Shown: positions 1,084 through 25,514 of the stretch, piece by piece
Position numbering within the stretch: position 1 is the stretch's first letter
Layout of the letters: each line of letters begins with the position of its first letter
Assembly: GCA_963422205.2 (NCBI GenBank)
Contig: CAXMWX010000001.1
Location: 64,001-128,000 of the forward strand
From: Gammaproteobacteria bacterium
Lineage (GTDB): Bacteria > Pseudomonadota > Gammaproteobacteria > Eutrophobiales > Eutrophobiaceae
Reading direction: 5' to 3'
DNA length: 64,000 bases
Position numbers and translations under genes: made by a program
Notes under the pieces: generated by a model
What the model was told of the DNA's origin: nothing
What the model saw: the letters and a program-made list of their open reading frames with translations, nothing else
Databases searched by the model: none

Positions 1084-1106
1084 GTTACTTGCATAAAAAG
1101 ACTAAC
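1084..1106. promoter_or_regulatory. putative operator, copy 1 (GTTACTTGCATAAAAAGACTAAC)
   Basis: Core 1087-1103 is the exact reverse complement of 25495-25511. It lies between the divergent thiolase and TonB receptor genes. Confidence 0.75.
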
Positions 1107-1138
1107 CAGGCAGTGGCATTCTCCACTGTCCCCAGGTG

Positions 1139-1174
1139 TGAGTCAATGGGCATGAGTCAATGGGTGCAAGTCAA
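1139..1174 (+). repeat. 14-bp-period tandem repeat (TGAGTCAATGGG x2 plus a partial third copy)
   Basis: TGAGTCAATGGG at 1139-1150 and 1153-1164; AGTCAA at 1141, 1155 and 1169. Confidence 0.8.
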
Positions 1175-1211
1175 CAGCGTTGAACGTATAACTTCAGGAG
1201 GTAAGATAACC

Positions 1212-3482
1212 ATGCAGGCACACAAGCTAACCCTCGCCGCTCTTATCACCACGTGCATCCTCGGCGGGGCACCCGTCAGAGCAGATGACACCGGGGCCGA
1301 TGACCAGGCCGATGAAGCGGCTGTTTTTTTGATTGAGGAGATCACCGTCACGGCGCAAAAGCGCGAGCAATCTGTGCAGGAGGTGCCGATTGCCATCTCG
1401 GCCTACGATGCGCGTACCCTGGAGGCCATCAAGGCGGTCAGTATGGATGATATTGCCATCAGAGTGCCGAATTTTACCATGATGCAATTCAATATTGCCG
1501 AGCCGCGTTATTTCATTCGCGGCCTTGGCAGCAGCTCGGACTCGGCGGGCAGTGATCCCACCGTGGCGGTGTTTTTAGATGAGGTCTATATTGGGCGCGG
1601 TGGGGCATCGAATTTTGATTTTTTTGATCTGGAACGCATTGAAGTGTTGCGTGGCCCGCAGGGGACGCTGTTCGGTCGCAATACTTCCGGCGGCGCCTTG
1701 AGCGTGATCACCAAAAAGCCCAGCCTGGATAGCCGCCATGCGAAATGGCAGGTCGGTTACGGCAACAAGAACGCGGTGGAGGTACGTGCAGTCGGCAATC
1801 TTCCGGTGGCGCTGAATGCGGCTGTCAAGGGCGCAATTTCCTATCGCCGCCGCGATGGCTTCTCCAGGCATATCGAAACGGACGCCGAACTACAGGATGC
1901 GGAGAATATCAGCGGTCGGGCGCAGGCCTTGTTTGAGCCGACTGCTGACACCCGCCTGCTGCTCAGCGCTGACTATGCCCAGGATGACACCAAAGGCAAT
2001 GCCCGCGTGCCTTTTCCGGTGAGTAGCACTGGCAATGCCTTCGCCCCCGCCCTGTCAGCGGCGGTGAATGCGGTCTACCCGCCGGGCAGCAGCGTGCGGC
2101 GATCGTTCTCCAAGCCCGAGTCCTATCAAGACCGGAAGATCTATGGCCTGATGGCACGCCTTGAACATGAGGCCGCCTACGGGCTTTGGACGGCGATCAG
2201 CAGCTACCGCAAAACCCGCTACGGCTGGTTTGAAGACTTATCTACCGCCGCCGGTGCGGGTGGCTTGCTGAACGATGATATCACCGCCGAGAAATCCAGC
2301 CAGCTCAGCGCAGAAGTGCGCCTTGCATCGCTGACAGACAGCGAGGTTCAATGGGTGGCGGGTGCGTATTTTTTAAGCGAAGAGGTGGATCGCAGTGAGC
2401 GGTTTGTGCTTGATTTCCTGTCGCCGTTGTTGGCTTTCAAGGCGCTGCCCTCCCGCAACGGCCCGCCGCTGGATGCCGATGGCGATGTGACCTTCACCCA
2501 GGCGAGCGATAACGACAGCTATGCTGTCTTCGGCCAGCTGACCTGGCCATTGACGGCACAGCTTAGTGTGACTGGCGGCCTGCGCTTCACTCGAGATGAG
2601 AAGGAGATTCATCAGGTGGCGGTGGATAATGCCCAAGATGATCCCAACCCGGGCGTGCCACTGTTCCCTGGTCAGCCCTATGATCTGAATGGTGAGGACT
2701 CCTGGAATGCGCTCACGGGCCGGGCGGGGCTGGAGTACACCACCGCCGCCGGTCATCTGCTCTGGGCGGCGGTTAGCCGAGGTTACAAATCCGGCGTCTT
2801 CCCAAGCCAGAACAACGTATTGCAAAGCGTGAATACGGCATTGGCGCCGGAGAAGGTATGGAACTATGAGGTGGGACTTAAAAGCGACTGGCTGGATGGG
2901 CGCCTGCGCCTTAACGCCACCGGCTTCTACACCGATTATAAAGACCTGCAGCAATTTCTGCTGACGCCGACCTTGATCCTCGTCACCTTCAATGTGGATG
3001 CCCGGATTCTGGGGGCGGAGTTGGAGACCGTCATGGCACCGTTTGCCGGGGTGCAACTGGGCGCCACGGCCTCTTTTATCGACACGGAAATCAAAAACTA
3101 CATGCCCGTTCCCAATCGGCCGATCAGCGGCCTGGCATCGGGCAATGAACTGGCACAGGCGCCCAGGACCTCATTTAACCTGTTCGGCAGCTATGAGACA
3201 CCGCTTGCCAATGGCCTGGCGTCCATGCGGCTGAATTATTCCTGGCGCGATGACTTTTTCAATTCGGTGACCAATCGGGCGGTCAACCTTATCCCCGGCT
3301 ACGGCCTGCTGGATGCTCGCCTTGCCTACCGCTGGGACAACGGCATGGAAATCGCCTTGTGGGGGAAGAACCTGACCGATGCAGAATACCAAAGCCATAC
3401 CATCGGGTTTCTGGGCAGTGGCTTCTCACTCTTTGGCCCGCCCCGAACCTTCGGCGTGACCTTCACGGCGACCTATGATTGA
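1212..3482 (+). CDS. TonB-dependent receptor
   Basis: RBS AGGAGG before ATG 1212; signal peptide; TonB box IEEITVTAQKRE; plug motif ERIEVLRGPQGTLFGRN; beta-barrel C-terminus PRTFGVTFTATYD. Confidence 0.95.
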   Translation: MQAHKLTLAALITTCILGGAPVRADDTGADDQADEAAVFLIEEITVTAQKREQSVQEVPIAISAYDARTLEAIKAVSMDDIAIRVPNFTMMQFNIAEPRYFIRGLGSSSDSAGSDPTVAVFLDEVYIGRGGASNFDFFDLERIEVLRGPQGTLFGRNTSGGALSVITKKPSLDSRHAKWQVGYGNKNAVEVRAVGNLPVALNAAVKGAISYRRRDGFSRHIETDAELQDAENISGRAQALFEPTADTRLLLSADYAQDDTKGNARVPFPVSSTGNAFAPALSAAVNAVYPPGSSVRRSFSKPESYQDRKIYGLMARLEHEAAYGLWTAISSYRKTRYGWFEDLSTAAGAGGLLNDDITAEKSSQLSAEVRLASLTDSEVQWVAGAYFLSEEVDRSERFVLDFLSPLLAFKALPSRNGPPLDADGDVTFTQASDNDSYAVFGQLTWPLTAQLSVTGGLRFTRDEKEIHQVAVDNAQDDPNPGVPLFPGQPYDLNGEDSWNALTGRAGLEYTTAAGHLLWAAVSRGYKSGVFPSQNNVLQSVNTALAPEKVWNYEVGLKSDWLDGRLRLNATGFYTDYKDLQQFLLTPTLILVTFNVDARILGAELETVMAPFAGVQLGATASFIDTEIKNYMPVPNRPISGLASGNELAQAPRTSFNLFGSYETPLANGLASMRLNYSWRDDFFNSVTNRAVNLIPGYGLLDARLAYRWDNGMEIALWGKNLTDAEYQSHTIGFLGSGFSLFGPPRTFGVTFTATYD

Positions 3483-3538
3483 GTTTGGGGCGCAGCATTG
3501 CCTGTCACATCCTGCCACAGTCCGCCGTTGGTCAAGCG

Positions 3539-4561
3539 ATGACTGAGGCTATCCCATGCCAGGGGAAGCGGCTGGGTACTCGGCTCAGCCTGCCGCTGAT
3601 CGTAGCGCCCATGTTTTTGGTGTCCGGGCCACAGTTGGTGATCGCCGCCTGTCGTTGCGGCGTCATCGGCAGCTTCCCGGCAACCAATGCGCGCTCGCTG
3701 GCTATCTATGGCGACTGGCTGGAGCAGATCACGCAAGCATTGCAAACAGCATCGCCGCTGGCACCGGCCGAGGCGCTCGCGCCCTGGGCGGCCAATCTGA
3801 TCGTACACAGCTCCTATCGGCGCTTGGCGGCCGAGCTGGCGTTGGTCAGGCGCTATCAGCCGCCCATCGTGATCACCGCCCTGGGCAGCCCGGCGGCGGT
3901 CATCGATAGTGTGCATGCCTACGGCGGCCTGGTGCTTGCCGATGTCAACACTGTGGCGTTTGCCCGCAAGGCGGCTGCGGCCGGGGTGGATGGTCTGGTG
4001 CTGGTGTGCAATGGTGCGGGGGGGCATACGGGCGAGTTATCGGCGTTCGTGTTCGTCTCACAGGTGAGGGAGTTTTTTGATGGCATCATCGTGCTTGCCG
4101 GCGGGATCAGCGATGGCCGGGCTATCCGGGCGGCAGAAGTCCTGGGTGCAGATCTCGCCTACATGGGCACCTCGTTTATCGCCACAGATGAGAGCCTGGC
4201 GAGCGAGGATTATAAAAAGATGGTCGTTGAGGCCGGGCCGGCGGATCTGATGTTATCGTCTGCCTTTACCGGTGCTAATGCGTATTATCTGCGGCAGAGT
4301 ATCGTGCGTACCGGGCTGGCGCCGGATAAATTGCCCACCAGGGATGGGCCCGCCAAGGATGGGATGGATCTGTCCCATGCCGAACAACAGATCAAGGCCT
4401 GGCGGGATATCTGGTCAGCCGGACAGGGAGTGGGCACGGTGGATGGCGTCAGCACAACGGCTGAACTGGTGGCTAAATTCAAGCGGCAGTACGCTGCCGC
4501 CGTGAGTCTGGATAGCAAAGCGATGGATGGGCCCGGTGCTGCCTGCCAGCACTTGAGATGA
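3539..4561 (+). CDS. nitronate monooxygenase family FMN oxidoreductase
   Basis: PLIVAPMFLVSG, GAGGHTG (catalytic His), LAGGISDG, AYMGTSFIAT, KAWRDIWSAGQGV. Start taken at ATG 3539 (ORF track opens at 3479). Confidence 0.9.
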   Translation: MTEAIPCQGKRLGTRLSLPLIVAPMFLVSGPQLVIAACRCGVIGSFPATNARSLAIYGDWLEQITQALQTASPLAPAEALAPWAANLIVHSSYRRLAAELALVRRYQPPIVITALGSPAAVIDSVHAYGGLVLADVNTVAFARKAAAAGVDGLVLVCNGAGGHTGELSAFVFVSQVREFFDGIIVLAGGISDGRAIRAAEVLGADLAYMGTSFIATDESLASEDYKKMVVEAGPADLMLSSAFTGANAYYLRQSIVRTGLAPDKLPTRDGPAKDGMDLSHAEQQIKAWRDIWSAGQGVGTVDGVSTTAELVAKFKRQYAAAVSLDSKAMDGPGAACQHLR

Positions 4562-4670
4562 GCGCTGCGGCAAGCTGCCTGCCATGCCCGTCTGCTCATG
4601 CCTGTGCTGGTGCGATGATGCTGACCGGGCATCTGCTTTGATGAATATACGTACATAAAAGGTGGCTGGT

Positions 4671-6194
4671 ATGACGATGAACCCCGAATCGCTGGCGTTG
4701 ACAGCGCGCAGCATCAGAACGACCGATAAAGACGGGCGCCTGCCTCCAGATGCGCCGGACTGGATTTACGGGATTGATAATCCTTACCTGCATGGTTTTT
4801 ATGCGCCTGTAACCAGAGAAGTGCAGGCCAGCGAATTTGCGATCAGCGGGGAGATCCCCTCAGACCTGCATGGTGCTTATGTCAGGAACAGCCCCAACCC
4901 GATGTTCAAGCCGATCACCCCTTATCACCCCTTTGATGGCGATGGCATGTTGAGCGCTGTCGTGTTTCGTGATGGTCAGGTGCTGTCCTATGCCAACCGC
5001 TGGATAGAGACTGCTTCTCTCAAACAGGAAAGGGCAGAGGGCAGGGCCATCTGGCCTGGTGTGATGGGGCCGTATGATTTCTCCCTGCCGTATTTTCCGA
5101 TCAAGGACACGGCCAATACCGATGTGGTCTTGTTCAACAAAGAATTGCTGGCGCTGTGGTATATGAGCGGCGTGCCGTATGCGATTGACCCGGTGACCCT
5201 GCAAACCAAAGGCGCACAGACGTTTAACGGCATGCTGGATCGCAGCATATCAGCGCATTGCCGGGTAGATTTGCACAGCGGCGAGATGCTGTTTTTTCAC
5301 TACGGCGATGAGCCGCCTTATATGGTGTACTATGTGGCCAGTACCGAGGGCAAGATCACCAACCAAGTGGCGGTGGATCTGCCCGGCCCGCGCTCCCCGC
5401 ATGAGATCGGCATCACGCAGCATTACTCCATCCTGCATGACTTTCCCTTCTTTCACGATACGGCTATTTTGCGCCGCCACAACAAGCGGGTGGTGGCTTT
5501 TCATTCGGATATGCCCGCCCGCTTCGGCATCATTCCCCGGCATGGCGGGGCGGATGAGATCACCTGGTTTGCGTGTACGCCTTGTTACATGCTGCACAGC
5601 GTCAATGCCTGGGAGGAGGGCGAGTGGATCATCATGGATGGGTGTCGTTCAACCAATCCCATGCCCAGGCCCAACCGGGACAACGGCGAGTTATCGCACA
5701 TGCTGGCGTACATGGTGGTGGAGGCGAGCCTGTATCGCTGGCGTTTTAACTTGAGAACCGGGGAAGTCAGGGAAGAACCGATCTGTGATCTGAATACCGA
5801 GTTCCCCAAGATCAACCCGCTGTATGTGGGTCGTAAATCAAAATACACCTACATACAGCGCATCCCCAGGGCCGATGAGGGCGGCAAGACCTTGGCCTTC
5901 ACTGCCTTGATGAAGTATAACTGTGATAAGGGTACATATCAGAAATGGGAGTATGGCGAGGGCGTGTACGGCAGCGAGGCGGTCTTTGCCCCACGCAAGG
6001 GCGCCCGCTTGGACGATGCCGAGGACGATGGCTATGTGATCACATTCACCACCGATGCCAACACCTGGCAGTCCGCGTGCTTGATCTTCGATGCCAGGGA
6101 TATCTCGCCCGGACCGATCGCCCGCATCGCCCTGCCGCAGCGTTCAGGATTCGGCTTTCACGCCAACTGGTTGCGCGGCGAGGAGTTGTTTTAA
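4671..6194 (+). CDS. carotenoid cleavage oxygenase / lignostilbene dioxygenase (RPE65) family protein
   Basis: YHPFDGDGM motif and four Fe-binding His in the expected contexts (SAHC, PHEIG, LHSVNAWE, GFHANW); EFP and SEAVF second-sphere Glu. Confidence 0.93.
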   Translation: MTMNPESLALTARSIRTTDKDGRLPPDAPDWIYGIDNPYLHGFYAPVTREVQASEFAISGEIPSDLHGAYVRNSPNPMFKPITPYHPFDGDGMLSAVVFRDGQVLSYANRWIETASLKQERAEGRAIWPGVMGPYDFSLPYFPIKDTANTDVVLFNKELLALWYMSGVPYAIDPVTLQTKGAQTFNGMLDRSISAHCRVDLHSGEMLFFHYGDEPPYMVYYVASTEGKITNQVAVDLPGPRSPHEIGITQHYSILHDFPFFHDTAILRRHNKRVVAFHSDMPARFGIIPRHGGADEITWFACTPCYMLHSVNAWEEGEWIIMDGCRSTNPMPRPNRDNGELSHMLAYMVVEASLYRWRFNLRTGEVREEPICDLNTEFPKINPLYVGRKSKYTYIQRIPRADEGGKTLAFTALMKYNCDKGTYQKWEYGEGVYGSEAVFAPRKGARLDDAEDDGYVITFTTDANTWQSACLIFDARDISPGPIARIALPQRSGFGFHANWLRGEELF

Positions 6195-6283
6195 CCCGCA
6201 GCACCGCCGGGATGTTGCACTTCTTATCGCCTAGCCTGTGCGGCGGCCAGATGCCCCCAGATGCCTATGCTGGGCGATACGTT

Positions 6284-6778
6284 CTACCCCTCGCTATCTG
6301 CCCGATGCACTGCATCGATGAGCGCAACAGCGTGTACGGCGATCCCTTCCCGTCGGCCAATATAGCCCATGGTCTCGTTCGTGGTCGCCTTGAGGTTGAC
6401 GGCATCTGGCGGCACGTCCATGTCCGCCGCCAGGTTATCCTGCATGGCGGCCAGGTGCGGTGCCAGTTTGGGCGCCTGAGCGATGATCGTGATATCGGCA
6501 TTGATGATTCGGTAGTTATCCCGTTGCAGGCGGGCGATGATATCACGCAGCAGGATACGGCTGTCTATGTTCGCCAGCGTATCGTCCGTGTCCGGGTACC
6601 AGCGGCCAATATCGCCGAGGCCCGCTGCCCCCAGCACGGCATCACACAGCGCATGGATGACCACATCGCCATCGGAATGGGCCAGCATGCCGCGATCGTA
6701 TGGTACGGTAACGCCGCCGAGGATCAACGGCGCATCCTGACAAAACTGATGCGTATCATAGCCATGTCCTATACGCAT
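6284..6778 (-). CDS. ispF: 2-C-methyl-D-erythritol 2,4-cyclodiphosphate synthase
   Basis: MRIGHGYDTH, HSDGDV, LGDIG, KATTNE motifs. Confidence 0.97.
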   Translation of the reverse strand: MRIGHGYDTHQFCQDAPLILGGVTVPYDRGMLAHSDGDVVIHALCDAVLGAAGLGDIGRWYPDTDDTLANIDSRILLRDIIARLQRDNYRIINADITIIAQAPKLAPHLAAMQDNLAADMDVPPDAVNLKATTNETMGYIGRREGIAVHAVALIDAVHRADSEG

Positions 6779-7482
6779 GGGCTGCTGTCCTTCCCGCGCA
6801 GATAAAATGCGGCCAACGCCACATCCTCTGCATGAGTCACCTTGATGTTATGCCTGCCACAGGCGATCAGCTTCGGCCTCATGCCCAGCCGCTCCATGGC
6901 CTGCATCTCATCGGTAACGATGACGTTATCATCCATCGCCTGTTGCAGGGCGGCCTTTAAGCGGCCTAAGCGAAACATCTGTGGCGTCATGGCATGCCAT
7001 AGCTGTTCCCGTGCTACCGTCTCGATCACCTCACGTTCGGCATTGGTGCGTTTCATGGTATCTGTGACCGGCACACCCAGGGCACCGCCCACCGGGTGTC
7101 CTGTCAGGGTGTCAATCAGCCGGTCGATATCGGCCGGTGTGATGCACGGCCTGGCGGCATCATGCACCAGCACCCAGTCGTCCTTATCGGCCTGTCTCTC
7201 CAACGCCAGCAGCCCATTGAGCACGGAATGACAGCGCTGCTGCCCGCCATCGGCACGGCTGATCTTCTCATGGCCGGCCAGCGCCAGGTGCGGCCAATAC
7301 GCATCAGCCGCAGCAGTGACCACAACGATGCCACATATCGCCTCATGTTCGCAGAACGGCCGCAGCGCATGTTCGATGATGGTCTTATCGTTAATGGTCA
7401 AATACGGCTTGGGTCGGTCGGCATCCATGCGGCTGCCCGTCCCGGCGGCGGGGATCAGCGCCCAGCAGACCGCCTCACTCAT
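6769..7482 (-). CDS. ispD: 2-C-methyl-D-erythritol 4-phosphate cytidylyltransferase
   Basis: IPAAGTGSRM, VLVHDAARP, TPQMF, NIKVT; lies between ftsB and ispF. Confidence 0.96.
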   Translation of the reverse strand: MSEAVCWALIPAAGTGSRMDADRPKPYLTINDKTIIEHALRPFCEHEAICGIVVVTAAADAYWPHLALAGHEKISRADGGQQRCHSVLNGLLALERQADKDDWVLVHDAARPCITPADIDRLIDTLTGHPVGGALGVPVTDTMKRTNAEREVIETVAREQLWHAMTPQMFRLGRLKAALQQAMDDNVIVTDEMQAMERLGMRPKLIACGRHNIKVTHAEDVALAAFYLRGKDSSPCV

Positions 7483-7774
7483 GGCTGGCATCGGTGGCCT
7501 GATCCTCCTCAATCACCCGGTAGAACACTTCGCCCTGGCGGATCAGCCCCAGCTCACTTCTGGCCCGTTCTTCGATGGCAGCAAACCCGTGTTTTAAGTC
7601 CATCACCTCGGCGGCAAGTGCCTGATTTCTCCTCAGCAGACGATGATTTTCCTGCCGTTGTGCCTGTTTTATCTGCTCTAAGTGGCGTACATCCTGAATG
7701 CCACCGACGCTGAACCACAGGCGAAATTGCAGTAATGCCAGGATGATGAGCAGGATCATGTTACAGATTTTCAT
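7475..7774 (-). CDS. ftsB: cell division protein FtsB
   Basis: N-terminal TM, LQFRLW, coiled coil, IEERARSELG; conserved eno-ftsB-ispD synteny. Confidence 0.93.
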   Translation of the reverse strand: MKICNMILLIILALLQFRLWFSVGGIQDVRHLEQIKQAQRQENHRLLRRNQALAAEVMDLKHGFAAIEERARSELGLIRQGEVFYRVIEEDQATDASHE

Positions 7775-7780
7775 CGGGGT

Positions 7781-9085
<1,305 letters not shown>

Positions 9086-9089
9086 TCAC

Positions 9090-11553
<2,464 letters not shown>

Positions 11554-16832: not shown

Positions 16833-17171
16833 GTGAACACACATTCCAAATACAAACTCATCACCTGTATCCTGCCGCATGGCAGGGGTCATGCGGTGAT
16901 GGAACAACTGCAAGAGAAAAACATTTTCACCGCGGCGGTCAATTATGCCCGTGGCTGTGGCAAATTAACCCCGCGGGAATACCGGGGAGCGGGTGAGCAA
17001 ACGGAAAAAGAAATACTTGAAGTTCTCGTCCCGGCCGATGATGCCGCGGCGGTATTTAACTACCTGTATATCGCTGCTGATATAAACCGGCCTCATGGCG
17101 GCCTGATGTATATGGCGGCGCTGGGGCATGCAACCCCGTTTGTTCCCCCTGAGTTGCCGCTCCAGGACTAA
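16833..17171 (+). CDS. P-II-like family regulator 2
   Basis: KLITCILP, ARGCG, EKEILEVLV, PHGGLMY. Start uncertain (GTG 16833 or TTG 16809). Confidence 0.8.
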   Translation: MNTHSKYKLITCILPHGRGHAVMEQLQEKNIFTAAVNYARGCGKLTPREYRGAGEQTEKEILEVLVPADDAAAVFNYLYIAADINRPHGGLMYMAALGHATPFVPPELPLQD

Positions 17172-18343
17172 GACGCAAGACGGCAATTCCCTTGCCTCCT
17201 GCGTATATACCGCTGATCCAGCGCCTGTACCGAGCGACACCCCAGCAGCATAAGCGCCTGCTTGATTTCCTGTTTCAGGATAGCCAGTGCCCGGTCGACA
17301 CCTTGCTCCCCACCAGCCCCCAGACCATACAGATAAGCCCGGCCGATCATAACGGCCCTGGCGCCCAGACACAGGGCTTTCACCACATCGGTGCCTCTTC
17401 TGATACCCCCATCCAGTATCACCTCGGCCTTGTTCCCCACAGCCGCAACAATTTCCGGCAGGATGCCGATGGGCGTTGCCGCATGATCCAGCTGCCGCCC
17501 GCCATGGTTGGAGACGATGATCGTCTTGATGCCTGACGCCACCGCCCGGCGGGCATCATCGGGGTTGAGAATGCCCTTGATGGCAAAGGGCCCCTGCCAT
17601 TGCGCCTGCATCCAGCGGACATCATCCCAGGTAAGGCTCGGATCAAACTGTGAACGGGTATACTGGATCACCGAAAACAAGGCTTCGCTGACATCCGCAT
17701 GTTCGCGGATATTCGCCAGCGCCATCTTCGGTGTCGTGAGGAGGTGCCAGAGCCAGTGCGGGCATCGCAAGGCATCAACAATATTGCGCGGCCCGATCCG
17801 CGGGGGTACGGTAAACCCATTCCTAAGATCACGCTCTCGCTGGCCGGCAGTGGCAAAGTCCACCGTCAGGCACAGCGAGGTATAACCGGCCTCCTTGCAG
17901 CGCTGAATAAATTTTTCTACCAGCTCTCTCTCCCGCCAGACATAGATTTGAAAACAGACCGGGCCACTCGTCTGTGCGGCGAGTTCTTCAATCGAGTATG
18001 TTGCCATTGACGACAGGCTGTAGATCGTCCCCGCCCGATGCGCTGCCCGGGCAACCGCTATCTCGCCCTGGTGATGGAACAGCCGCGACATGCCGGTTGG
18101 TGCCATCATCACGGGCAAGGCGATATCCGTGTTCAGCACCCGGGTCTGCAAGGCGACATCGGCCACATCGACCAGAGAATGCGGCAGGAATTCATAATCA
18201 TTAAAATCATCATGATTACGCCGTAACGTGACCTCATCCCCCGCCGCCCCGTCCAGATAATCAAACACGGCCTGCGGCAAGCGCCGCTTTGCCAGCCGGC
18301 GCAAATCGTCAATATTCAGACAGTGTTCCAATCCTGCTCGCAT
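17168..18343 (-). CDS. FMN-dependent alpha-hydroxy acid oxidase/dehydrogenase (LldD/glycolate oxidase family)
   Basis: FDYLDGAA, APTG, SNHGGRQLD, DGGIRRGTDV. Confidence 0.93.
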   Translation of the reverse strand: MRAGLEHCLNIDDLRRLAKRRLPQAVFDYLDGAAGDEVTLRRNHDDFNDYEFLPHSLVDVADVALQTRVLNTDIALPVMMAPTGMSRLFHHQGEIAVARAAHRAGTIYSLSSMATYSIEELAAQTSGPVCFQIYVWRERELVEKFIQRCKEAGYTSLCLTVDFATAGQRERDLRNGFTVPPRIGPRNIVDALRCPHWLWHLLTTPKMALANIREHADVSEALFSVIQYTRSQFDPSLTWDDVRWMQAQWQGPFAIKGILNPDDARRAVASGIKTIIVSNHGGRQLDHAATPIGILPEIVAAVGNKAEVILDGGIRRGTDVVKALCLGARAVMIGRAYLYGLGAGGEQGVDRALAILKQEIKQALMLLGCRSVQALDQRYIRRRQGNCRLAS

Positions 18344-18345
18344 GA

Positions 18346-18657
18346 TTAGAAAATTTTCACCCGGCCAGCCAGTATATCCTTAAACATCACCCAATCGCCG
18401 ATCAGGCTGTATAGAGGATAGGTAAACGTGGCGGGCTTGTTTTTCTGAAAAAAGAAATGCCCGGCCCAGGCGCAGCCGTAACCCACCACAGGCAGCAGCA
18501 ACAAGTAGAGGTAGCTGACGGTCAAGAGGCTCACGCCGAGCAGCAGCAAGACCAGAAGTGAGCCGAGAAAATGCAGTCGCCGACAATTTATGTCGCTGTG
18601 TTCGTTAAGATAAAACGGGTAAAATTCGCTGAACGAGGCGTAATTTTTGTCAGTCAT
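18346..18657 (-). CDS. DUF962 / Mpo1-like membrane protein
   Basis: SFSEFYPFYLNEHS..CRRLHF..GYGCAWAGHFFFQKNKPATF.YPLYSL.GD; start taken at ATG 18657. Confidence 0.9.
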   Translation of the reverse strand: MTDKNYASFSEFYPFYLNEHSDINCRRLHFLGSLLVLLLLGVSLLTVSYLYLLLLPVVGYGCAWAGHFFFQKNKPATFTYPLYSLIGDWVMFKDILAGRVKIF

Positions 18658-18679
18658 CACGGATACGCCGATGTGGGTG

Positions 18680-19753
18680 TTACGAGGGCGCAGGTATGGG
18701 CGTACCTTTACGCAGCAGCAACTCCCGCAGCTGGATAATGACTGGAAAGATCTCCTGGTTCCAGTCCGCCCCCTGCTGGTCAAAGGCCGTTTGCTCCATT
18801 TCCACCACCCATCTGTCTTCGGCAAAGATCCCTTCGGTAAACCAGATGACGAACGGCCACAGCACTTGCATCAGGCCGGGCATGTTTGGTTTGCGGATAT
18901 TCATCAGGCCAAAGGTATGGTTGATGCGTTGCGATTTGTCCACCGGCACATAGGTGATCCATAAATCCAGCGCTGGCTCGGTGCTGCCGGCCGTCCAGAA
19001 TTTAAGCCGCTGGTGCGGGTAATGCGTACTGACGGTCATCAAGTCTTTGGGCCGTCCTGCCGTTGGCGGCGGGCGCCGGCCCAGCATCACCTTCTCGCCG
19101 ATGGGCTGCCTGCCAGTGCGCGAAAACGTATAATCGACCTCCACCCAGTCGCGGCCTTCTCGCAAATCCAAAAAAGCCGTTTGAATCTTCGACATGATGC
19201 CGCGGTGCAGAAACTGATGATTCATGTCCATCAGGTTCTCGTGCAAAAACGAATAATGACAGGCCACCTGTCGATCCAGGTAGCGCGTCTTGTAGTGCTT
19301 GTCATGCCAGGACGGGACATCGGGAAAGGCAGCGGACGCCGACAGCCCCTGATCGCCCGGAAAAATAAAGATCAGGCCGTACTCTTCCCGGCAGGCATAG
19401 GCGCAGACGCCGCGCGGCATGGTCTCGCTCTTGCCCACATAGGGGATGTTGATGCACCTGCCGGTGTGATCATACACCCAGCCGTGGTAGCAGCATTGTA
19501 TGTTCTCGCCGCACACCACGCCTTCTGATAACGGCACCTGCCGGTGGGCGCAGCGATCTTCCAGTGCGAACACCTGGCCTGTCTTTGTGCGTACCAGCAC
19601 GATGGGCTCGCCAGCGAAGCGGCGGCTGATCGCCTTGCCCGGCGTTAAGTCTTTGCTGCGGGCTAATGGATACCAGTGATCCGGGTGTGCGCCTGTTTTA
19701 CGAAGATCACGGCTCACCGCACTGGCGGCGTCCTGCGGCGGGTTGGCTGACAT
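18680..19753 (-). CDS. Rieske non-heme iron oxygenase alpha subunit (VanA/CAO-like)
   Basis: Rieske CAH...CCYHGW motif and mononuclear-iron motif ENLMDMNHQFLH. Confidence 0.92.
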   Translation of the reverse strand: MSANPPQDAASAVSRDLRKTGAHPDHWYPLARSKDLTPGKAISRRFAGEPIVLVRTKTGQVFALEDRCAHRQVPLSEGVVCGENIQCCYHGWVYDHTGRCINIPYVGKSETMPRGVCAYACREEYGLIFIFPGDQGLSASAAFPDVPSWHDKHYKTRYLDRQVACHYSFLHENLMDMNHQFLHRGIMSKIQTAFLDLREGRDWVEVDYTFSRTGRQPIGEKVMLGRRPPPTAGRPKDLMTVSTHYPHQRLKFWTAGSTEPALDLWITYVPVDKSQRINHTFGLMNIRKPNMPGLMQVLWPFVIWFTEGIFAEDRWVVEMEQTAFDQQGADWNQEIFPVIIQLRELLLRKGTPIPAPS

Positions 19754-19816
19754 GACGATGCTCTCGTTACATAAAGATGGCGGTCATGTTAGCAGAATAT
19801 GCTGACCATGCCAGGA

Positions 19817-20725
19817 TCATTGTATCAGGCTGGCATGTATCAGTGACAGCATCGTCTCCGGGTTGACAAACCCGCCGCCATGACTTTGATCATAATCATC
19901 GGCATTGGGTTTCAAGGCGATGATCTCCTCAAGCGATTTGCCCGCATCGATTAGCTGTTGCACCCGCTGCTTCAGGGTCTTGAGCATCGCAAGGTAGGCT
20001 TGCAACTCGGCCCGGTCACCGACCGGGCCATGACCGGGGATGATTATGCTGCTCTCATCGGCCATAGCGATCACCTGCTCCACCGCCGCTATCATGCCAT
20101 CGATCGAGCCACCGCTGCCAACATCAATAAACGGGTAGAGGCCATTAAACCAGATATCGCCGGTATGAATGACATTCGCCCTGGTGAAATGGGCCACACC
20201 ATCGCCGTCCGTGTGTGCATTTTTATGATGCAGGACATGCACGACATCGCCATTGAGATGAAACGTCAGGCGATCGTTGAACGTAATCACCGGCAAGGCG
20301 ACCGGCGGTGCGGCCTTGACCTCCCAGCCAAACGGCTTGATCACATGATCCTCTGCCATGCGCCGGCGTACATTATCATGGGCGATAATGAGCGCCCCCT
20401 GCCTGCCAAGATTTTCATTCCCGCCAGTATGATCAAAATGCCAATGGGTGTTGATGACATAGCTGATCGGCGCTGTCGATATTTTTTTTATCGCCGCCAT
20501 GATCTTTGTGGTCAAGGGCGCAAACTGATCATCGATCAGAAAAACACCATCCTCCCCCACCGAGGCGCCGATATTGCCGCCCTCGCCGTACAAGACATAG
20601 AGAGTATCGGCCAGCTTCTCGGTGGTTATCTCTACCTTGGCGAAGTGGTCCTCACCCTTGGCGCCGGCCAGCGATACCCAGCTAATCATCAATAGCAAAA
20701 CCATAGATCTGTAAAAACGCATCAT
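19817..20725 (-). CDS. secreted metallo-beta-lactamase-fold hydrolase (cyclase-like)
   Basis: Signal peptide; NTHWHFDHTGGN, AHTDGD, HTGD, IPGHG. Confidence 0.9.
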   Translation of the reverse strand: MMRFYRSMVLLLMISWVSLAGAKGEDHFAKVEITTEKLADTLYVLYGEGGNIGASVGEDGVFLIDDQFAPLTTKIMAAIKKISTAPISYVINTHWHFDHTGGNENLGRQGALIIAHDNVRRRMAEDHVIKPFGWEVKAAPPVALPVITFNDRLTFHLNGDVVHVLHHKNAHTDGDGVAHFTRANVIHTGDIWFNGLYPFIDVGSGGSIDGMIAAVEQVIAMADESSIIIPGHGPVGDRAELQAYLAMLKTLKQRVQQLIDAGKSLEEIIALKPNADDYDQSHGGGFVNPETMLSLIHASLIQ

Positions 20726-20881
20726 TATTTCCTCTCAATCTGAAGATAAAATTTGGAACTGATATATTACAACGCATGCACCCGATTTGTAAGGGTAACG
20801 CTTGCCGAAGACAGATGTGGATGTATCGCTTCCTCCGATCATCAGGCAAGGATGATAAACTCATGGGCGTGCAGGGTTTTT

Positions 20882-21194
20882 TTATGGCTTATCCGCATAT
20901 TTGATGGTCAATTCATCTTCAAGGCCAAAAAGCTGCAAGGCTCGTTTTATGTTCTGGAATTTGGTCTTGTTATCAGAATGCGCTTCAATGAAATAAGCCT
21001 TATCTAGCTTAACAGCTTGCCTGTATTGTGAATATCATTCTGAATTTTGGTCAATTTGATTTTCTCTGCCAGGCCGCCCCTGGTGTTGGCTGTCAGATTG
21101 GCTTGTTGTTTGGCAATGACCTCATCGGCCTTCGAATGCACAGTGAATGACACGGCCATCGTGACCACGGCAAATAAAAGGTGTATTTTTTCAT
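20882..21194 (-). pseudogene. chimeric frameshifted gene remnant
   Basis: RBS AGGAG plus ATG 21194. One added A in the A-run restores MKKIHLLFAVVTMAVSFTVHSKADEVIAKQQANLTANTRG; a second shift gives RQAVKLDKAYFIEAHSDNKTKFQNIKRALQLFGLEDELTIKYADKP*. Confidence 0.55.
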
Positions 21195-21320
21195 GGCTTC
21201 TCCTGCTGCAAATATGACGTTATCTTGATCGTTTTGAATTGAGTAAACTTCTGGCATACACACCTCGGCCAGCACCGCCCGTCATTATCCGCCCCGGTGA
21301 TCATGATGCGATGATTTTAT

Positions 21321-21340
21321 AGTATTATAATGCAAGTTAC
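21321..21340. promoter_or_regulatory. putative operator, copy 3 (AGTATTATAATGCAAGTTAC), overlapping -10 hexamers
   Basis: 14/17 match to AGTCTTTTTATGCAAGT. Overlaps TATAGT (21318-23) and TATAAT (21326-31), just upstream of the esterase start. Confidence 0.6.
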
Positions 21341-21348
21341 TCTATCCC

Positions 21349-22896
21349 ATGGATGTAGAAATGCACCGCTATTATCTCATTGCCCTTGCGCTGCTCTGTC
21401 TTGTTTTGCATAAGGCAAACAGCGCCGTCACAGATTGCCAACTGGCGCCTGTGGCCGGCATCGGCCAGCTTGAAGTTACCGCCGTTGCATCGCCAGCCCT
21501 GCCCGCATTTTGCCAGGTCAAAGGCGTGCTGGAAGGGCGCATACGCTTTGAGGCCCGTCTGCCGCTTGAAGGCTGGAACGGCAAGTTCCTGATGGCCGGT
21601 TGTGGCGGGTTTTGCGGCAGCCTGCTGCCCGACAAGCCGGGCTTCTCCAACAGCATCAACGAAGCGTTGAAAATGGGTTATGCTGCCATCGCCCATGACG
21701 GCGGCCACCGCGGCGCCAGCCACGACACCGCATGGGCTTATCATGACCGCCAGGCATTAGAGATATGGGCACACCGGATACTGCCCATCGTTGCCCGCAA
21801 CGGCAAGGCCATCGTGACGGCGTTTTATGGCCGCCCGCCTGCGCTGTCCTATTTTTCCGGTTGCTCTAACGGCGGTCGCCTGGGGCTGATGGCGGCACAA
21901 CGCTACCCGCAGTTGTTTGACGGCATCCTCGCCGGCGCTCCTGTCTTTGATTTGTCCGGCAATGCTGGCATCTACGCCGCCTGGAAGGCACAGCAGCTAT
22001 ACCGGGCCGATGGGACACTGCGCCTGGGGCAGGAAAAAATTCCCTTGCTGAAATCTTACGTGCTGAGGCAATGCGATGGCCTGGATGGGTTGGCCGATGG
22101 CATCATCGCCGCGCCCGGGCGGTGCCAGGTCGATCTGTCTACCTTGCGCTGTCGGCCCGGCGTACCCGCCGATGATTGCTTGTCTGGTGGACAAATCACG
22201 CTGTTGAACAGGCTGTATCACGGGGTAAGTGATAGCAAAGGCGAGCGCCTGTACCCCGGCATATCCTATGGCTCGGAACATTACTTCGCCACCTGGATCA
22301 TCGGCAAGCCGGGGCAACCGGCCTGGGGTACGCTGGCCGGGCAGGGCTACCTTAATCTGGTCAATGAGATGGCGCCTGATCAGCACTATGCCATGCACCG
22401 TTTCGATGTCGATAAAGACCCTGAGTTGTTAAGAGAACACCCGCTGGCGGCGATGATGGATGCCACCAGCACGGATCTGTCGGCCCTGGTGGGCGCAGGA
22501 ACAAAATTGATTATCTGGCACGGCTGGTCAGACCCGCTGATCCTGCCCAAACGCACCGTGGATTACTACGAGGCCATCGCCCGCAAGCTGGGCGGCATGG
22601 GCAGGGCCAGGGAGCGTGTGCGCCTGTTTCTGCTGCCGGGGCATGGACACTGCTGGCGCCAAGCCGCCGAGGCGCCGGATCAGTTTAATCCGATCCAGCT
22701 ACTGGCAGATTGGGTTGAATCCGGCAGCGCCCCATCGCAATTTATCGCCCACCAGCAAGATGCCGCCGGGAACACCCTGCGCTCACGGCCGATATGCGCC
22801 TATCCCGCCGTAGCGCGATATCAAGGCACAGGCGATATGAATGATGCCGCCAGTTTTGTTTGTGAAATCAACGGCAATTCATCATTGGCAAAGTAG
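21349..22896 (+). CDS. tannase/feruloyl esterase family alpha/beta hydrolase, secreted
   Basis: Signal peptide; WNGKF; nucleophile motif SGCSNGG; CDGLDGLADG; WHGWSD; PGHGHC; RPICAYP. Start at 21349 or 21361. Confidence 0.93.
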   Translation: MDVEMHRYYLIALALLCLVLHKANSAVTDCQLAPVAGIGQLEVTAVASPALPAFCQVKGVLEGRIRFEARLPLEGWNGKFLMAGCGGFCGSLLPDKPGFSNSINEALKMGYAAIAHDGGHRGASHDTAWAYHDRQALEIWAHRILPIVARNGKAIVTAFYGRPPALSYFSGCSNGGRLGLMAAQRYPQLFDGILAGAPVFDLSGNAGIYAAWKAQQLYRADGTLRLGQEKIPLLKSYVLRQCDGLDGLADGIIAAPGRCQVDLSTLRCRPGVPADDCLSGGQITLLNRLYHGVSDSKGERLYPGISYGSEHYFATWIIGKPGQPAWGTLAGQGYLNLVNEMAPDQHYAMHRFDVDKDPELLREHPLAAMMDATSTDLSALVGAGTKLIIWHGWSDPLILPKRTVDYYEAIARKLGGMGRARERVRLFLLPGHGHCWRQAAEAPDQFNPIQLLADWVESGSAPSQFIAHQQDAAGNTLRSRPICAYPAVARYQGTGDMNDAASFVCEINGNSSLAK

Positions 22897-22964
22897 CTCT
22901 TGAGTATCAAAATCTGATTGGCTAACATGTATACCATTATTGGCAATTAATTTGAGTTAAATGG

Positions 22965-23663
22965 ATGACCGGGCACTTATTAGATAAGAAAAAAATTACT
23001 GGCTATACAATCTATAACGCTGAACAGCATCGCAGAACAGTTAAAAATAATTTGCCAGATTGCTACCCTGCTCTTCCTCAGAAAAGATATGATGTAATTT
23101 ATGCAGATCCTCCGTGGGATTACGGTGGCAAGATGCAGTTTGATAAAAGCAGCAAATCTATTGATAAAATCGATCTAAGTAAAAATATTTTCATTAGTGC
23201 AGCAAATTTTAAGTACCCGACGATTAAAATTAAAGATCTAAAAAATATCCCTGTCTATGAAATTGCCAAAAGTAATTGCCTCCTGTTTATGTGGGTAACG
23301 AATCCACATCTTGCACAAGGAATTGAATTAGGCCAGGCATGGGGGTTTGAATATAAGACTGTTGCTTTTGTATGGGACAAGATGGTGCATAATCCTGGTC
23401 AATATACATTGTCGTATTGTGAACTATGCTTATTGTTTAAAAGAGGGAAAATACCATCCCCCAGGGGTGCTAGGAACATTAAGCAACTTGTACGTGTAAA
23501 ACGAACACATCACAGTGAAAAACCACTTCTTGTGCGAGAAGGTATTGAAAAAATGTTCCCTACACAAGAAAAAATAGAACTATTCTCAAGAAGTAAACCG
23601 AAAAACTGGGATGTTTGGGGACTAGATGTAGAAAAAATTTATAAAAGTGAAAAAATTATCTAA
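22965..23663 (+). CDS. MT-A70 family N6-adenine DNA methyltransferase (M.MunI-like)
   Basis: VIYADPPW motif, LFMWVT, HSEKP, IELFSR; AT-rich; adjacent to an endonuclease gene. Confidence 0.9.
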   Translation: MTGHLLDKKKITGYTIYNAEQHRRTVKNNLPDCYPALPQKRYDVIYADPPWDYGGKMQFDKSSKSIDKIDLSKNIFISAANFKYPTIKIKDLKNIPVYEIAKSNCLLFMWVTNPHLAQGIELGQAWGFEYKTVAFVWDKMVHNPGQYTLSYCELCLLFKRGKIPSPRGARNIKQLVRVKRTHHSEKPLLVREGIEKMFPTQEKIELFSRSKPKNWDVWGLDVEKIYKSEKII

Positions 23664-24259
23664 ACCAATATTGGTTCTATATGTTTAAAGAAATGTTCAT
23701 ATAGCGGGGCTGGGTCGCCAGCATTCCGCCAGAAGAAAAAGTGGCCTTCCCTATTATGATACCAGCAGGTTACCTCTCTTGCCCTACAGGGGTCTCTTGT
23801 GATATTGCCTTGAAAAACAGTCCAAAAGGGAAGCGCATCATCATTAATGTTACCTTTCTCTCGAAGAATCTTTAGAAGCCCGGGGGCGAAGAACTTGCAT
23901 GATCTTTCGTGGGCATTGCCACGACCATCTGAACGCTTGCCTCCTTCTACCCAGCCGTCTTGGCGTTTGACCTCTACATACATGGTTTTCTCTGTTTCGG
24001 TATTATCTATTGCATAATCAGGGAAAACACCATGTTTGGTTATCGTTTCTGGCGGGTTGTATATTTCACTTTTTACTTGCTCTGAAAGTTCAACATCAAG
24101 ATAAATTTTGCTAAATTCTTTTGGTTTAGCTCGTATTGTAAATTCCGTATCAGCAAACAAAGTTTGAAAAGCCACCAGGAAATCATTTTCCGCAGCACTG
24201 GCATTTCTTCCGCTGTAGTGTTGCCATTTTCTCCTCAGACGATTATCTGTGCTTCCCAT
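23660..24259 (-). CDS. MunI-family type II restriction endonuclease
   Basis: PD..D/ExK core GVFPDYAI...VEVKRQDGWVEG..GRGNAHERSCK and ITRDP, matching my recollection of R.MunI (EcoRI-related). Confidence 0.88.
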   Translation of the reverse strand: MGSTDNRLRRKWQHYSGRNASAAENDFLVAFQTLFADTEFTIRAKPKEFSKIYLDVELSEQVKSEIYNPPETITKHGVFPDYAIDNTETEKTMYVEVKRQDGWVEGGKRSDGRGNAHERSCKFFAPGLLKILREKGNINDDALPFWTVFQGNITRDPCRAREVTCWYHNREGHFFFWRNAGDPAPLYEHFFKHIEPILV

Positions 24260-24508
24260 TATTCATTGATCCTCAGCAAGGTAGAAAGTGATACATTCAA
24301 CGCTTTAGCAATTTGATAAACATTAAGAAGAGTAATATTCTCCAGCTCCCCGTTCTATCATGCTGTAATAGGTGCGATGAAGCCCAGCCTTATCCGCAAG
24401 CTGTTCCTGAGATAAGCTTTGCGCTTTTCTTGTGCTGCGGACTCGGCTTCCGAAAGAGGATAAAATTTTCTCATCTTTATTTTTCACGGTGTTCTCTCTA
24501 AGTCGCAT
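24259..24508 (-). pseudogene. restriction-modification controller (C) protein, XRE HTH, frameshifted
   Basis: FGSRVRSTRKAQSLSQEQLADKAGLHRTYYSMIERG then a premature stop at 24323. The +1 frame continues ENITLLNVYQIAKALNVSLSTLLRINE*, and its TAA overlaps the endonuclease ATG (TAATG). Confidence 0.8.
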
Positions 24509-24520
24509 CGCATTAGATAA

Positions 24521-25429
24521 CTAAGGCCGTTGAAACTTCACCTCATGCGGTCTTAGTGTTGTCAGACATTCGCTGCACACCACGCGGGCGCGCAATCGGC
24601 GTTTGCATGGCGTGTGTGTTAAGAGCAGCGGCGCCTTGCCGGGTGCGGCCAACCAGCGATCGCCCCATTGCAACATGGCGATGATTGACGGGTACAGGTC
24701 GATGCCAGTGGCCGTCAACACATATTCATGCCGTGGGGGCCGGGTCTGGTATTGACGCCTTGCCAGCAGATCGCTTTTGACCAGCCGCTTGATACGATCG
24801 GTCAGTATATTCGTTGCTATTTTTTGCTGTTTACGCATCTCATCAAACCGGCGGATGCGAAAGAAGGCCATCGCCAGAATCAACGCCGCCCAGCGATCGC
24901 CCAGGATATCGCACATCGTATACAGATCTGCCCCGATTTCCTTGGAACGGCGTGTACGCTGGGGGGCGCAGCGGGACTCATAGCCAGCCCCCGGGCCGTC
25001 TTTATAGCGAACATCGTACGCACTTAACTCGCCCCCGCAATGTGAGCACACCATAAGCGGCTGCATCAACTGGCCACAGGATTGATGGTACAGGCTGCGG
25101 GGGTGTGCGATCCGGTGGCGGTGCCAGCGCTCCTCCCAGCACCACCCCATCAGGGCGCAGGGGTAGAGTTCCCGCCCCATCCGGGTCAGGTGATATTCAT
25201 AGCGCCTTGGTCGGTCATGGTAACGTGTTCTGTGCATCAAGCCGTTTTTTAGCAGGTGTTGCAAGCGGTTGCTCAAGGTACTCCTGGCGGTGGCCATGCT
25301 CGCCTGCCACTCGCCAAAGCGCTTTACCCCGACAAAGGCATACTCCAGGATGATCAAGGTGGTGCGGTCGCCGATGATGCCGAGGGCGCGATACACCGAG
25401 CTGGCCTGGATCTGATTCTTGAGCGCCAT
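24521..25429 (-). CDS. tandem (two-domain) HxlR-family winged-helix transcriptional regulator
   Basis: Two repeats of (I/L)GDR..L.I....F....RF....LxxRLxxL....RxEYxLT..G, each followed by HxxC...CxxC. Confidence 0.9.
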   Translation of the reverse strand: MALKNQIQASSVYRALGIIGDRTTLIILEYAFVGVKRFGEWQASMATARSTLSNRLQHLLKNGLMHRTRYHDRPRRYEYHLTRMGRELYPCALMGWCWEERWHRHRIAHPRSLYHQSCGQLMQPLMVCSHCGGELSAYDVRYKDGPGAGYESRCAPQRTRRSKEIGADLYTMCDILGDRWAALILAMAFFRIRRFDEMRKQQKIATNILTDRIKRLVKSDLLARRQYQTRPPRHEYVLTATGIDLYPSIIAMLQWGDRWLAAPGKAPLLLTHTPCKRRLRARVVCSECLTTLRPHEVKFQRP

Positions 25430-25464
25430 GGCAGCACCATACTGACTTGGACGAAAACCGCAAT

Positions 25465-25493
25465 TTGTATCTCTGCCGGACGGATGCTATAGT
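25465..25493 (+). promoter_or_regulatory. sigma70 promoter of the thiolase operon
   Basis: TTGTAT (25465-70), 17-bp spacer, TATAGT (25488-93) with an extended TGn. Confidence 0.6.
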
Positions 25494-25514
25494 CAGTCTT
25501 TTTATGCAAGTCAC
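25492..25514. promoter_or_regulatory. putative operator, copy 2 (GTCAGTCTTTTTATGCAAGTCAC)
   Basis: Exact 17-bp reverse complement of 1087-1103. Covers the predicted transcription start; lies between the divergent HxlR and thiolase genes. Confidence 0.75.

Follow-up and report, generated by a model that had tools for sequence, protein, structure and literature searches.

How can catabolic genes that are separated by kilobases of housekeeping DNA be placed under a common control? This question is raised by a 64,000-nucleotide stretch of a gammaproteobacterial genome (GenBank assembly GCA_963422205.2, contig CAXMWX010000001.1, positions 64,001 to 128,000; the whole stretch is referred to here as the window, and positions are counted from its first letter), in which the 17-mer ACTTGCATAAAAAGACT at 1087-1103 on the plus strand recurs as its exact reverse complement at 25495-25511, next to a gene for a 302-amino-acid regulator with two HxlR domains in tandem (24521-25429, minus strand). 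An earlier note, made from the sequence alone, proposed that this repeat is one shared operator through which the tandem-HxlR protein ties separate catabolic units together. That proposal is supported by the linkage of the box to tandem hxlR genes in Alphaproteobacteria, by a control with 60 relatives that lack the regulator, and by gene adjacency in soil contigs. We consider it likely, with a probability of about 0.8, that a 17-20 bp box, AGTCTnnTWATGCAAGTnAC, is the binding site of the 24521-25429 protein, because the same box adjoins this regulator's gene in distantly related bacteria.

The repeat and its flanks are present as described in the earlier note: 1084-1106 and 25492-25514 are identical at 21 of 23 positions, and a third copy of the 17-mer, at 21321-21337 before an esterase gene, has 3 mismatches (14/17). 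Shuffling of the window (n=100) gave a mean of 0.10 matches at three or fewer mismatches, with 0/100 shuffles giving three such matches. No further copy of ACTTGCATAAAAAGACT at two or fewer mismatches was found in the 2,988,056 bp assembly, and the match listing contains 8 unrelated copies at 3 mismatches across the whole genome. Since approximately 0.24 exact 17-mer pairs are expected by chance per 64 kb window (uniform model), the exact repeat by itself is weak evidence; the evidential weight lies in the position of the boxes in three intergenic regions together with the comparative data. The relaxed pattern AGT-N7-TGCAAGT yielded 9 matches in the genome compared with 5.7 expected (uniform model), and four of these fall within a 24.4 kb span in which 0.07 would be expected (P ~1e-4 after correction for the number of windows). 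These four occupy three intergenic regions and comprise the copies just described, termed w1 (1087-1103), w2 (25495-25511), and w3 (21321-21337), together with AGTCAATGGGTGCAAGT at 1155-1171; the earlier statement that TGCAAGT heptamers elsewhere lack AGT at this spacing was therefore not fully right. A position weight matrix (PWM) built from 16 sites, the consensus of which is asymmetric (AGTCTAnTWATGCAAGTCAC), placed w2 (30.3), w1 (28.2), and w3 (25.6) as the three highest scores of the genome, with the next score at 19.5.

All boxes share one orientation, with AGT distal and TGCAAGT proximal to the downstream unit. Box w2 (AGTCTTTTTATGCAAGTCAC, 25495-25514, plus strand) points at the gene for thiolase B (ATG at 25590) and lies 66 nt upstream of the divergent hxlR; box w1 (AGTCTTTTTATGCAAGTAAC, 1084-1103, minus strand) points at the gene for thiolase A (ATG at 916) and lies 109 nt before the ATG of a TonB-receptor gene; and box w3 (AGTATTATAATGCAAGTTAC, 21321-21340, plus strand) ends 11-23 nt before the esterase start. 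A tentative box, w4 (AGTCAATGGGTGCAAGTCAA, 1155-1174, plus strand), includes the 17-mer AGTCAATGGGTGCAAGT, stands 41 nt ahead of the TonB-receptor ATG, and would point at that gene. In the same intergenic region (1140-1164), just upstream of and overlapping w4, a direct repeat consists of GAGTCAATGGG twice with CAT between, and may be a site of another regulator. On a different contig (G000:C5:61859-61878, equivalent to L092 4859-4878), a box-like AGTCGGATCATGCAAGTAAC with a PWM score of 18.0 lies 16 nt upstream of an ACT-domain (GcvR-like) gene, which is followed by an AhpC/TSA peroxiredoxin gene, and a second ATTATGCAAG lies about 25 nt from it; AGTCGGATCATGCAAGTAAC may be a weak extra site or a chance match.

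Footprinting of orthologous promoters in close relatives was impossible because close orthologues are lacking: full-length tandem HxlR was found in 0 of 60 relatives, a close orthologue of the window's RPE65-family oxygenase in 0 of 60 (best matches 29-33% identical), and a close orthologue of thiolase B in 0 of 120 genomes of the family (best matches 42-48% identical). Regulator-centred footprinting was used in its place. A full-length tandem HxlR occurs in 1 of 400 other genomes of the class. The closest homologue examined (L023/G521) is 61% identical to the window protein, and P0002-P0004, which are 66-69% identical and lie on short contigs, are outside the comparison. A metagenome scan with the family alignment returned no matches, and one with P0003 as the query returned only relatives 29-41% identical. 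Two alphaproteobacterial metagenome-assembled genomes (MAGs; 7.0 and 6.1 Mb) carry a tandem HxlR that is 41-42% identical to the window protein, and at each locus two exact AGT-N7-TGCAAGT boxes flank the hxlR operon, one 50 nt before a CoA-ligase gene and the other before SnoaL and short-chain dehydrogenase/reductase (SDR) genes; the pattern matches only 3 and 2 times in the whole of these genomes. Among relatives of the MAG, 11 more genomes have tandem HxlR matches, some full-length and some split in two matches, and 10 of the 16 pattern matches in these genomes lie within 10 kb of the tandem hxlR. When the 13 alphaproteobacterial genomes are combined, 14 of 21 exact matches are no more than 10 kb from a tandem hxlR and 9 of the 13 genomes have at least one such match, with the linked boxes being the only pattern matches in the whole genome in three (G551, G529, and G534). 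The binomial probability of this linkage is ~1e-21 if hits are independent, a value that is overstated since the genomes are related. All of the linked alphaproteobacterial boxes lie between called genes, and their flanks differ while the box is kept. In two further genomes (G543 and G559), variants of the box with one or two changes precede hxlR by approximately 150-250 bp. Seven of the 13 genomes contributed regulators to a sequence comparison, in which identity among these proteins was 33-73% and identity with the window protein was 35-44%. Taken together, 12 of 16 tandem-HxlR genomes have a box between genes within 10 kb of the tandem hxlR.

The genes that follow the box vary from one lineage to the next. 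The alphaproteobacterial boxes precede operons with enoyl-CoA hydratase, a molybdenum hydroxylase of three subunits closest to archaeal glyceraldehyde (aldehyde) dehydrogenase, an AttM/AiiA-like lactonase of the metallo-beta-lactamase (MBL) type, SDR, and CoA ligase. Other targets in these genomes are an Fe-alcohol dehydrogenase gene followed by a thioesterase gene, Liv-type binding-protein/ABC transporter genes, and hxlR itself. The MBL protein and CoA ligase of the window were considered as orthologues of those in the alphaproteobacterial regulon and rejected as such, with the ligases being 25-26% identical and the MBL proteins unrelated. The constant neighbour of the box is the regulator and the pathways differ, which argues for a tie of the box to the regulator rather than to any one pathway. 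As an observation on these operons, the Fe-alcohol dehydrogenase found alongside the box operon at L122-L128 is similar to 4-hydroxybutyrate dehydrogenase and is accompanied by a 4HBT thioesterase; this box-controlled operon represents an uncharacterised pathway, possibly for a lactone or 4-hydroxy acid.

As a negative control, the 20-mer pattern was searched at one mismatch or fewer in the 60 relatives without the regulator, and 54 of these gave no match, compared with 3 matches in the genome of the window (G000). One of the relatives contains eight identical copies of AGTTTTTTTATGCAATTTAT (G022:C1, e.g. 234989-235008), a dispersed repeat that is box-like by chance and differs in the TGCAAGT core. 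Gene adjacency was examined in 35 distant tandem-HxlR loci, mostly soil metagenome contigs. In 6 of the 35, all of them high-GC contigs, an RPE65 gene lies directly upstream of the tandem hxlR with an SCP-x-type thiolase gene before it, and an SDR gene follows hxlR in those contigs long enough to show it. The soil-contig thiolase is 50% identical to thiolase A and the soil-contig RPE65 is 39% identical to that of the window, where the same thiolase-RPE65-hxlR trio is split by about 20 kb and carries the same box on its parts. These six contigs are probably from a single lineage. Upstream of the thiolase-RPE65-hxlR block, two of the soil contigs (L056 2595-2640 and L043 165-210) share a conserved CCCTGGATGGGTCACTCCAYCTGTTGTAG, and in L056 the palindrome TTACTGGTAAGTAA lies near this stretch; both are candidate operators of the high-GC family branch.

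The protein itself belongs to the HxlR/DUF24 family by its domains, with a Pfam HxlR (PF01638) score of 130.4 bits against a cut-off of 20.8, in two stretches. Each of the two winged-helix domains is followed by H-x2-C-x9-C-x2-C. This architecture is widespread: at least 277 protein clusters of similar length were matched at E <= 0.001 in a large protein database, and the annotated members of the family belong to Gamma- and Alphaproteobacteria, Myxococcota, and Binatia. Alignment of 26 members showed no variation in the cysteines of either motif and little or none in the histidine. A typical feature of the HxlR/DUF24 family is a conserved cysteine near the N-terminus, in helix 1, that senses redox state or electrophiles; no invariant N-terminal cysteine was found across the 26 members, in which the only invariant cysteines are C118, C128, C131, C275, C285, and C288, all in the C-terminal motifs of the domains. 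The AlphaFold model (pLDDT 88, pTM 0.87) places the motif residues in small beta-structures after each winged helix, and we interpret the modelled motifs as probable zinc ribbons. Fold comparison superposes each half on PA1607, PA1374, HypR, HxlR, YodB, and QsrR. The family habit of a homodimer on a palindromic operator is replaced here by a fused tandem and an asymmetric 16-site consensus.

A related box occurs upstream of single-domain hxlR genes in two relatives of the same family (G014 and G002). Each of these genes is preceded by two 17-mers that follow the pattern ACTTnnA-N3-TGCAAGT, an imperfect 7-3-7 palindrome (L005 1348-1364 and 1385-1401; L018 ~1950-2014), and one of the L005 17-mers overlaps a perfect GCAAGT-A-ACTTGC. 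The recognition-helix motif of the window protein's N-terminal domain is 'RSTL', and that of the C-terminal domain of tandem proteins is 'TNIL', which is shared by the single-domain HxlR proteins that have these palindromes. Because TGCAAGT palindromes and 'TNIL' go together in the single-domain relatives, the C-terminal domain would be the one that reads the TGCAAGT half, an assignment drawn from two single-domain loci and sequence comparison only.

The geometry of the boxes relative to promoters bears on how the protein acts. At w2, the promoter-like TTGTAT-17-TATAGT pointed out in the earlier note is present by reading (25465-25493, plus strand, with hexamers at 25465-25470 and 25488-25493) and the box begins 2 nt after it; a consensus promoter scanner did not report it, as the -35 hexamer matches at 3 of 6 positions only. 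Box w1 lies 15 nt downstream of a scanner-predicted TTGACT-17-GAGAAT (1118-1146, minus strand) directed toward thiolase A, and starts 13 nt downstream of TTGACA-17-TTTACT (1046-1074, plus strand), which is directed toward the TonB receptor and was read from the sequence and not reported by the scanner. Box w3 contains TATAAT at 21326-21331. Eight alphaproteobacterial sites have a TTGACA or TTGACG -35 hexamer ahead of the box, with a spacing of 11 nt in four of them and of 14-15 nt in the other four, and the box therefore covers the -10/+1 region, the usual position for a repressor. A sigma-54 promoter reading of the box was rejected by inspection, there being no GG/GC pair at the required spacing. 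Since the boxes lie on or just downstream of sigma-70-type promoters, the unliganded protein most likely represses; given the operator reading, we regard repression as the favoured mode, with reasonable though incomplete confidence, and the earlier suggestion of a probable repressor fits the alphaproteobacterial promoter geometry.

Several observations weigh against a single, conserved operator-repressor pair or narrow its reach. The 13 alphaproteobacterial genomes share an orthologous operon and do not constitute 13 independent observations. No box was found near the tandem hxlR in 4 of the 16 genomes (G521, G468, G562, and G542), and in G521, which holds the closest examined homologue, the three exact pattern matches are all in coding DNA and the hxlR neighbourhood is different, with type II secretion system-like and ABC genes. 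A PWM score of 15 or more was reached in 0 of 49 metagenome loci, including the six high-GC soil loci with thiolase-RPE65-HxlR. The operator is thus not universal in the tandem-HxlR family. In the window itself, the w4 score (17.3) falls inside the genome background range, for which reason this box is treated as tentative; the promoters are weak consensus matches, two of three having been missed by the scanner; the boxes lie downstream of the -10 hexamer and not over it, in which the Alphaproteobacteria differ; and between thiolase A and the phosphatase, dehydrogenase, and kinase genes there are 302 bp that may hold a separate promoter.

The weakness of the window promoters would suit activation, and Bacillus subtilis HxlR, the founding member of the family and one whose DNA-complex structure is among the fold matches, is an activator. 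That the tandem HxlR binds the box as an activator or dual regulator is nonetheless unlikely in our view, as the box starts 11-15 nt after a consensus -35 in the eight alphaproteobacterial sites and overlaps -10/+1, where a bound protein normally blocks RNA polymerase, and w3 contains a TATAAT. A different objection concerns the identity of the factor. TAnTWAT, at the centre of the box, is similar to a -10 hexamer and follows consensus -35 hexamers in Alphaproteobacteria, so that the box could be a promoter element, or the site of another co-inherited factor, with the tandem HxlR as a mere neighbour. The variable distance from -35 to box (11 nt in four sites and 14-15 nt in four) speaks against the box being a fixed promoter element in itself, and the invariant AGT and TGCAAGT are not sigma-70 determinants. 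Moreover, no gene other than the tandem hxlR stays near the box as the pathway changes from lineage to lineage, and a related palindromic box lies upstream of single-domain HxlR genes; we consider this explanation quite improbable.

The possibility that the repeat is a chance match, or the remnant of a duplication or rearrangement with no regulatory role, draws on the expectation of ~0.24 exact pairs per 64 kb, on the inverted arrangement of the two exact copies around 24 kb, and on the restriction-modification genes and integrase fragment nearby. It is strongly disfavoured, and the least probable of the explanations, given that the box recurs beside tandem hxlR in other classes, that all copies are intergenic and point at downstream units, and that the DNA between the copies is housekeeping. 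The related idea that the exact copies are inverted repeats of a mobile element flanking 24 kb was rejected on the housekeeping interior and on the occurrence of the box near hxlR in other genomes. What is observed directly is that the boxes are present, are unique in the genome, are oriented as described, and are linked to tandem hxlR across classes.

If the box is the operator of a tandem-HxlR repressor, a simple mechanism may be proposed. The protein would be a single chain with two winged-helix domains, a built-in pseudo-dimer, that binds the asymmetric box as a monomer, its C-terminal domain on TGCAAGT, the half that does not vary, and its N-terminal domain on AGTCTA, the half that varies more; the asymmetry of the operator would then mirror that of a fused and diverged pseudo-dimer. 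The repressed units would be its own gene, thiolase B-lipocalin-CoA ligase, the esterase, and the divergent thiolase A and TonB receptor-NMO-RPE65 units. An intermediate of the pathway, either an acyl-CoA or an aldehyde or other electrophile, would release the repressor: the recurring CoA ligases suggest a thioester, and the aldehyde-forming and aldehyde-oxidising enzymes, together with electrophile sensing in the family, suggest an aldehyde. The HxlR family has a history as electrophile sensors.

The gene neighbours named in the earlier note were confirmed by Pfam. Thiolase A, of the SCP-x type (410 aa), occupies 2-916 on the minus strand and continues outside the window to G000:C3:63684. Downstream of it on the same strand, also outside the window (C3:60421-63381), are the genes for a histidine phosphatase, an ACAD11-like dehydrogenase, and an APH kinase. 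The divergent plus-strand unit consists of the TonB-dependent receptor (1212-3482), an NMO/FabK-like FMN oxidoreductase (3479-4561), and the RPE65-family carotenoid-cleavage-type oxygenase (4662-6194, E = 7.7e-124). The esterase, of the tannase/feruloyl-esterase family (21349-22896, plus strand), has an N-terminus that looks like a signal peptide and is probably secreted. Beyond w2 lie thiolase B, of the acetyl-CoA C-acyltransferase type (25590-26801), a Lipocalin_5 domain protein (26798-27232), and an AMP-dependent acyl-CoA ligase (27409-29103), all on the plus strand. The 6.8-20.7 kb between units contain housekeeping genes (ispD, eno, kdsA, pyrG, fhs, tag) and others. The earlier estimate of about nine genes is accordingly revised to up to four boxes and 8 to 12 genes.

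The most informative enzymes with respect to substrate are the oxygenase and the genes just outside the window. The RPE65 protein scores 414.7 bits against its Pfam family and its four iron-binding histidines align with those of solved enzymes, which places it among the carotenoid cleavage oxygenases. Its best solved relative is a carotenoid 9,10-dioxygenase (270 bits), with lignostilbene dioxygenases at 166-193 bits, and it falls below every NCBIfam equivalog cut-off (lignostilbene 245 bits against a cut-off of 800). In lignostilbene dioxygenases Tyr101 and Lys134 bind the 4-hydroxyphenyl group; these positions are Val and Trp in the window enzyme, which is thereby set apart from the lignostilbene-alpha,beta-dioxygenase subgroup and for which a polyene substrate is likelier than a 4-hydroxystilbene. 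By these comparisons the oxygenase looks carotenoid-type and not stilbene-type. The earlier range of substrates (aromatic, terpenoid, or lipid) can thus be narrowed, with a stilbene-type aromatic less likely and a polyene or lipid likelier.

Additionally, the dehydrogenase beside the window scores 445 bits to ACAD11 compared with approximately 120 bits to ordinary acyl-CoA dehydrogenases, the adjacent APH protein scores 272 bits to the ACAD11 kinase domain, and the two genes lie 20 nt apart on one strand, the pairing of an APH kinase with an ACAD11-like protein being thus present. ACAD10 and ACAD11 are reported to phosphorylate 4-hydroxyacyl-CoAs and then to eliminate phosphate, which gives enoyl-CoAs (PMC12440821, PMC11342911). 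No terminator was detected on the coding strand in the stretch from thiolase A to the phosphatase, dehydrogenase, and kinase genes. Judging from these scores and the gene order, a 4-hydroxyacyl-CoA module of this kind may be part of the regulon, a membership made uncertain by the 302-bp gap and its possible promoter. Our guess, which is tentative and more likely wrong than right, is that the regulon serves the uptake and breakdown of an esterified apocarotenoid- or oxylipin-like lipid. In such a pathway an esterified polyene or hydroxylated lipid would be taken up, de-esterified, cleaved, and beta-oxidised, partly via 4-hydroxyacyl-CoA. No aldehyde dehydrogenase or enoyl-CoA hydratase gene was found next to the window boxes, and the pathway as listed is incomplete.

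A run of genes resembling lipid-oxidation functions lies between the units (17168-20725, minus strand) and comprises an FMN-dependent 2-hydroxyacid dehydrogenase, an Mpo1-like 2-hydroxy-fatty-acid dioxygenase, a Rieske/VanA-like oxygenase for which the best NCBIfam match is 4-beta-methylsterol monooxygenase (below cut-off), and an MBL hydrolase. The run diverges from the esterase across a 620-bp gap, with no box at its own end of the gap, and could be part of the same physiology. Genes associated with mobile DNA also border the catabolic units: a MunI-type endonuclease and an MT-A70 methylase lie between the esterase and hxlR (22965-24259), and to the left of the APH/ACAD genes (L001 11276-15350) are a ScaI-type restriction-modification pair, a further endonuclease-like gene, and a fragment with an integrase core. 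An SDR gene also lies on that side. The tandem HxlR (0/60), the RPE65 orthologue (0/60), and the thiolase B orthologue (0/120) are absent together from the relatives searched, and this shared absence, along with the restriction-modification and integrase genes at the flanks, suggests a joint acquisition of the units. Elsewhere in the assembly, a contig end of about 126 kb (G000:C7:~710,001-836,315) has a GC content of 0.35-0.40 compared with ~0.55 elsewhere and almost no long open frames, whether the standard code is applied or any one stop codon is read through; in one 10-kb portion (L093, C7:772001-782000) there is no open reading frame of 100 aa or more. This contig end resembles a chimeric join or foreign DNA, perhaps of a eukaryote-like kind.

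These results provide a testable operator for an uncharacterised regulator architecture that is widespread, and with it a handle for regulon prediction in any genome with the tandem-HxlR family. They also lead to a simple model, in which the fusion of two winged-helix domains lets the operator become asymmetric. Furthermore, the box brings together, as one candidate pathway, an RPE65-type oxygenase, an ACAD11-like 4-hydroxyacyl-CoA module, two thiolases, an esterase, and a TonB receptor. A gene set under such common control would help to focus the search for how bacteria catabolise carotenoid-like or oxidised lipids, a process that is poorly known. The portion of the literature reached by our search contains no description of tandem HxlR regulators, nor of a bacterial RPE65-thiolase cluster or pathway of this composition. 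The fullest version of the proposal, which we hold as more speculative than the substrate guess above, is that gene fusion left one domain with the ancestral TGCAAGT half-site and let the other evolve a new one, AGTCTA, with the operator conserved from Alpha- to Gammaproteobacteria, and that here the regulator would control an undescribed carotenoid- or oxylipin-like route for polyene-lipid esters, running from TonB receptor, esterase, and cleavage oxygenase through an ACAD11-like kinase/eliminase to thiolysis.

Compared with known systems, the enzymes and the regulator each have recognisable counterparts. The oxygenase resembles carotenoid cleavage oxygenases in its RPE65 fold match and four iron histidines, and departs from lignostilbene dioxygenases in its Val/Trp pair and lower scores. 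The ACAD11-like dehydrogenase and kinase scores recall ACAD10/ACAD11 and the bacterial Lva-type catabolism of 4-hydroxyacyl-CoAs, whereas here the kinase and the dehydrogenase are encoded separately and adjoin a gene for a histidine phosphatase, their link to the box being one of strand and proximity only. In its proposed working, the regulator is like MarR- and PaaX-type proteins such as CouR, FerC/HcaR, and PaaX, winged-helix repressors that sit over promoters of uptake, CoA-ligase, and beta-oxidation-like genes and are released by a pathway thioester; the likeness is one of working and not of membership. The SarA family (SarS, SarU, SarY) likewise offers single chains with two winged-helix domains that form a pseudo-dimer, but is a different family with a different biology, and the SarS fold match is weak (rank 32, TM 0.22-0.26). 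The closest relatives are the one-domain HxlR/DUF24 regulators (HxlR, YodB, CatR, HypR, QsrR), with which the window protein shares Pfam HxlR halves, their superposition, and an operator beside its own gene, and, in the case of the single-domain HxlR relatives, a TGCAAGT-containing box. It differs from them in that the two domains are fused, the operator is asymmetric, the N-terminal sensing cysteine is not among the invariant columns, and each domain is followed by H-x2-C-x9-C-x2-C.

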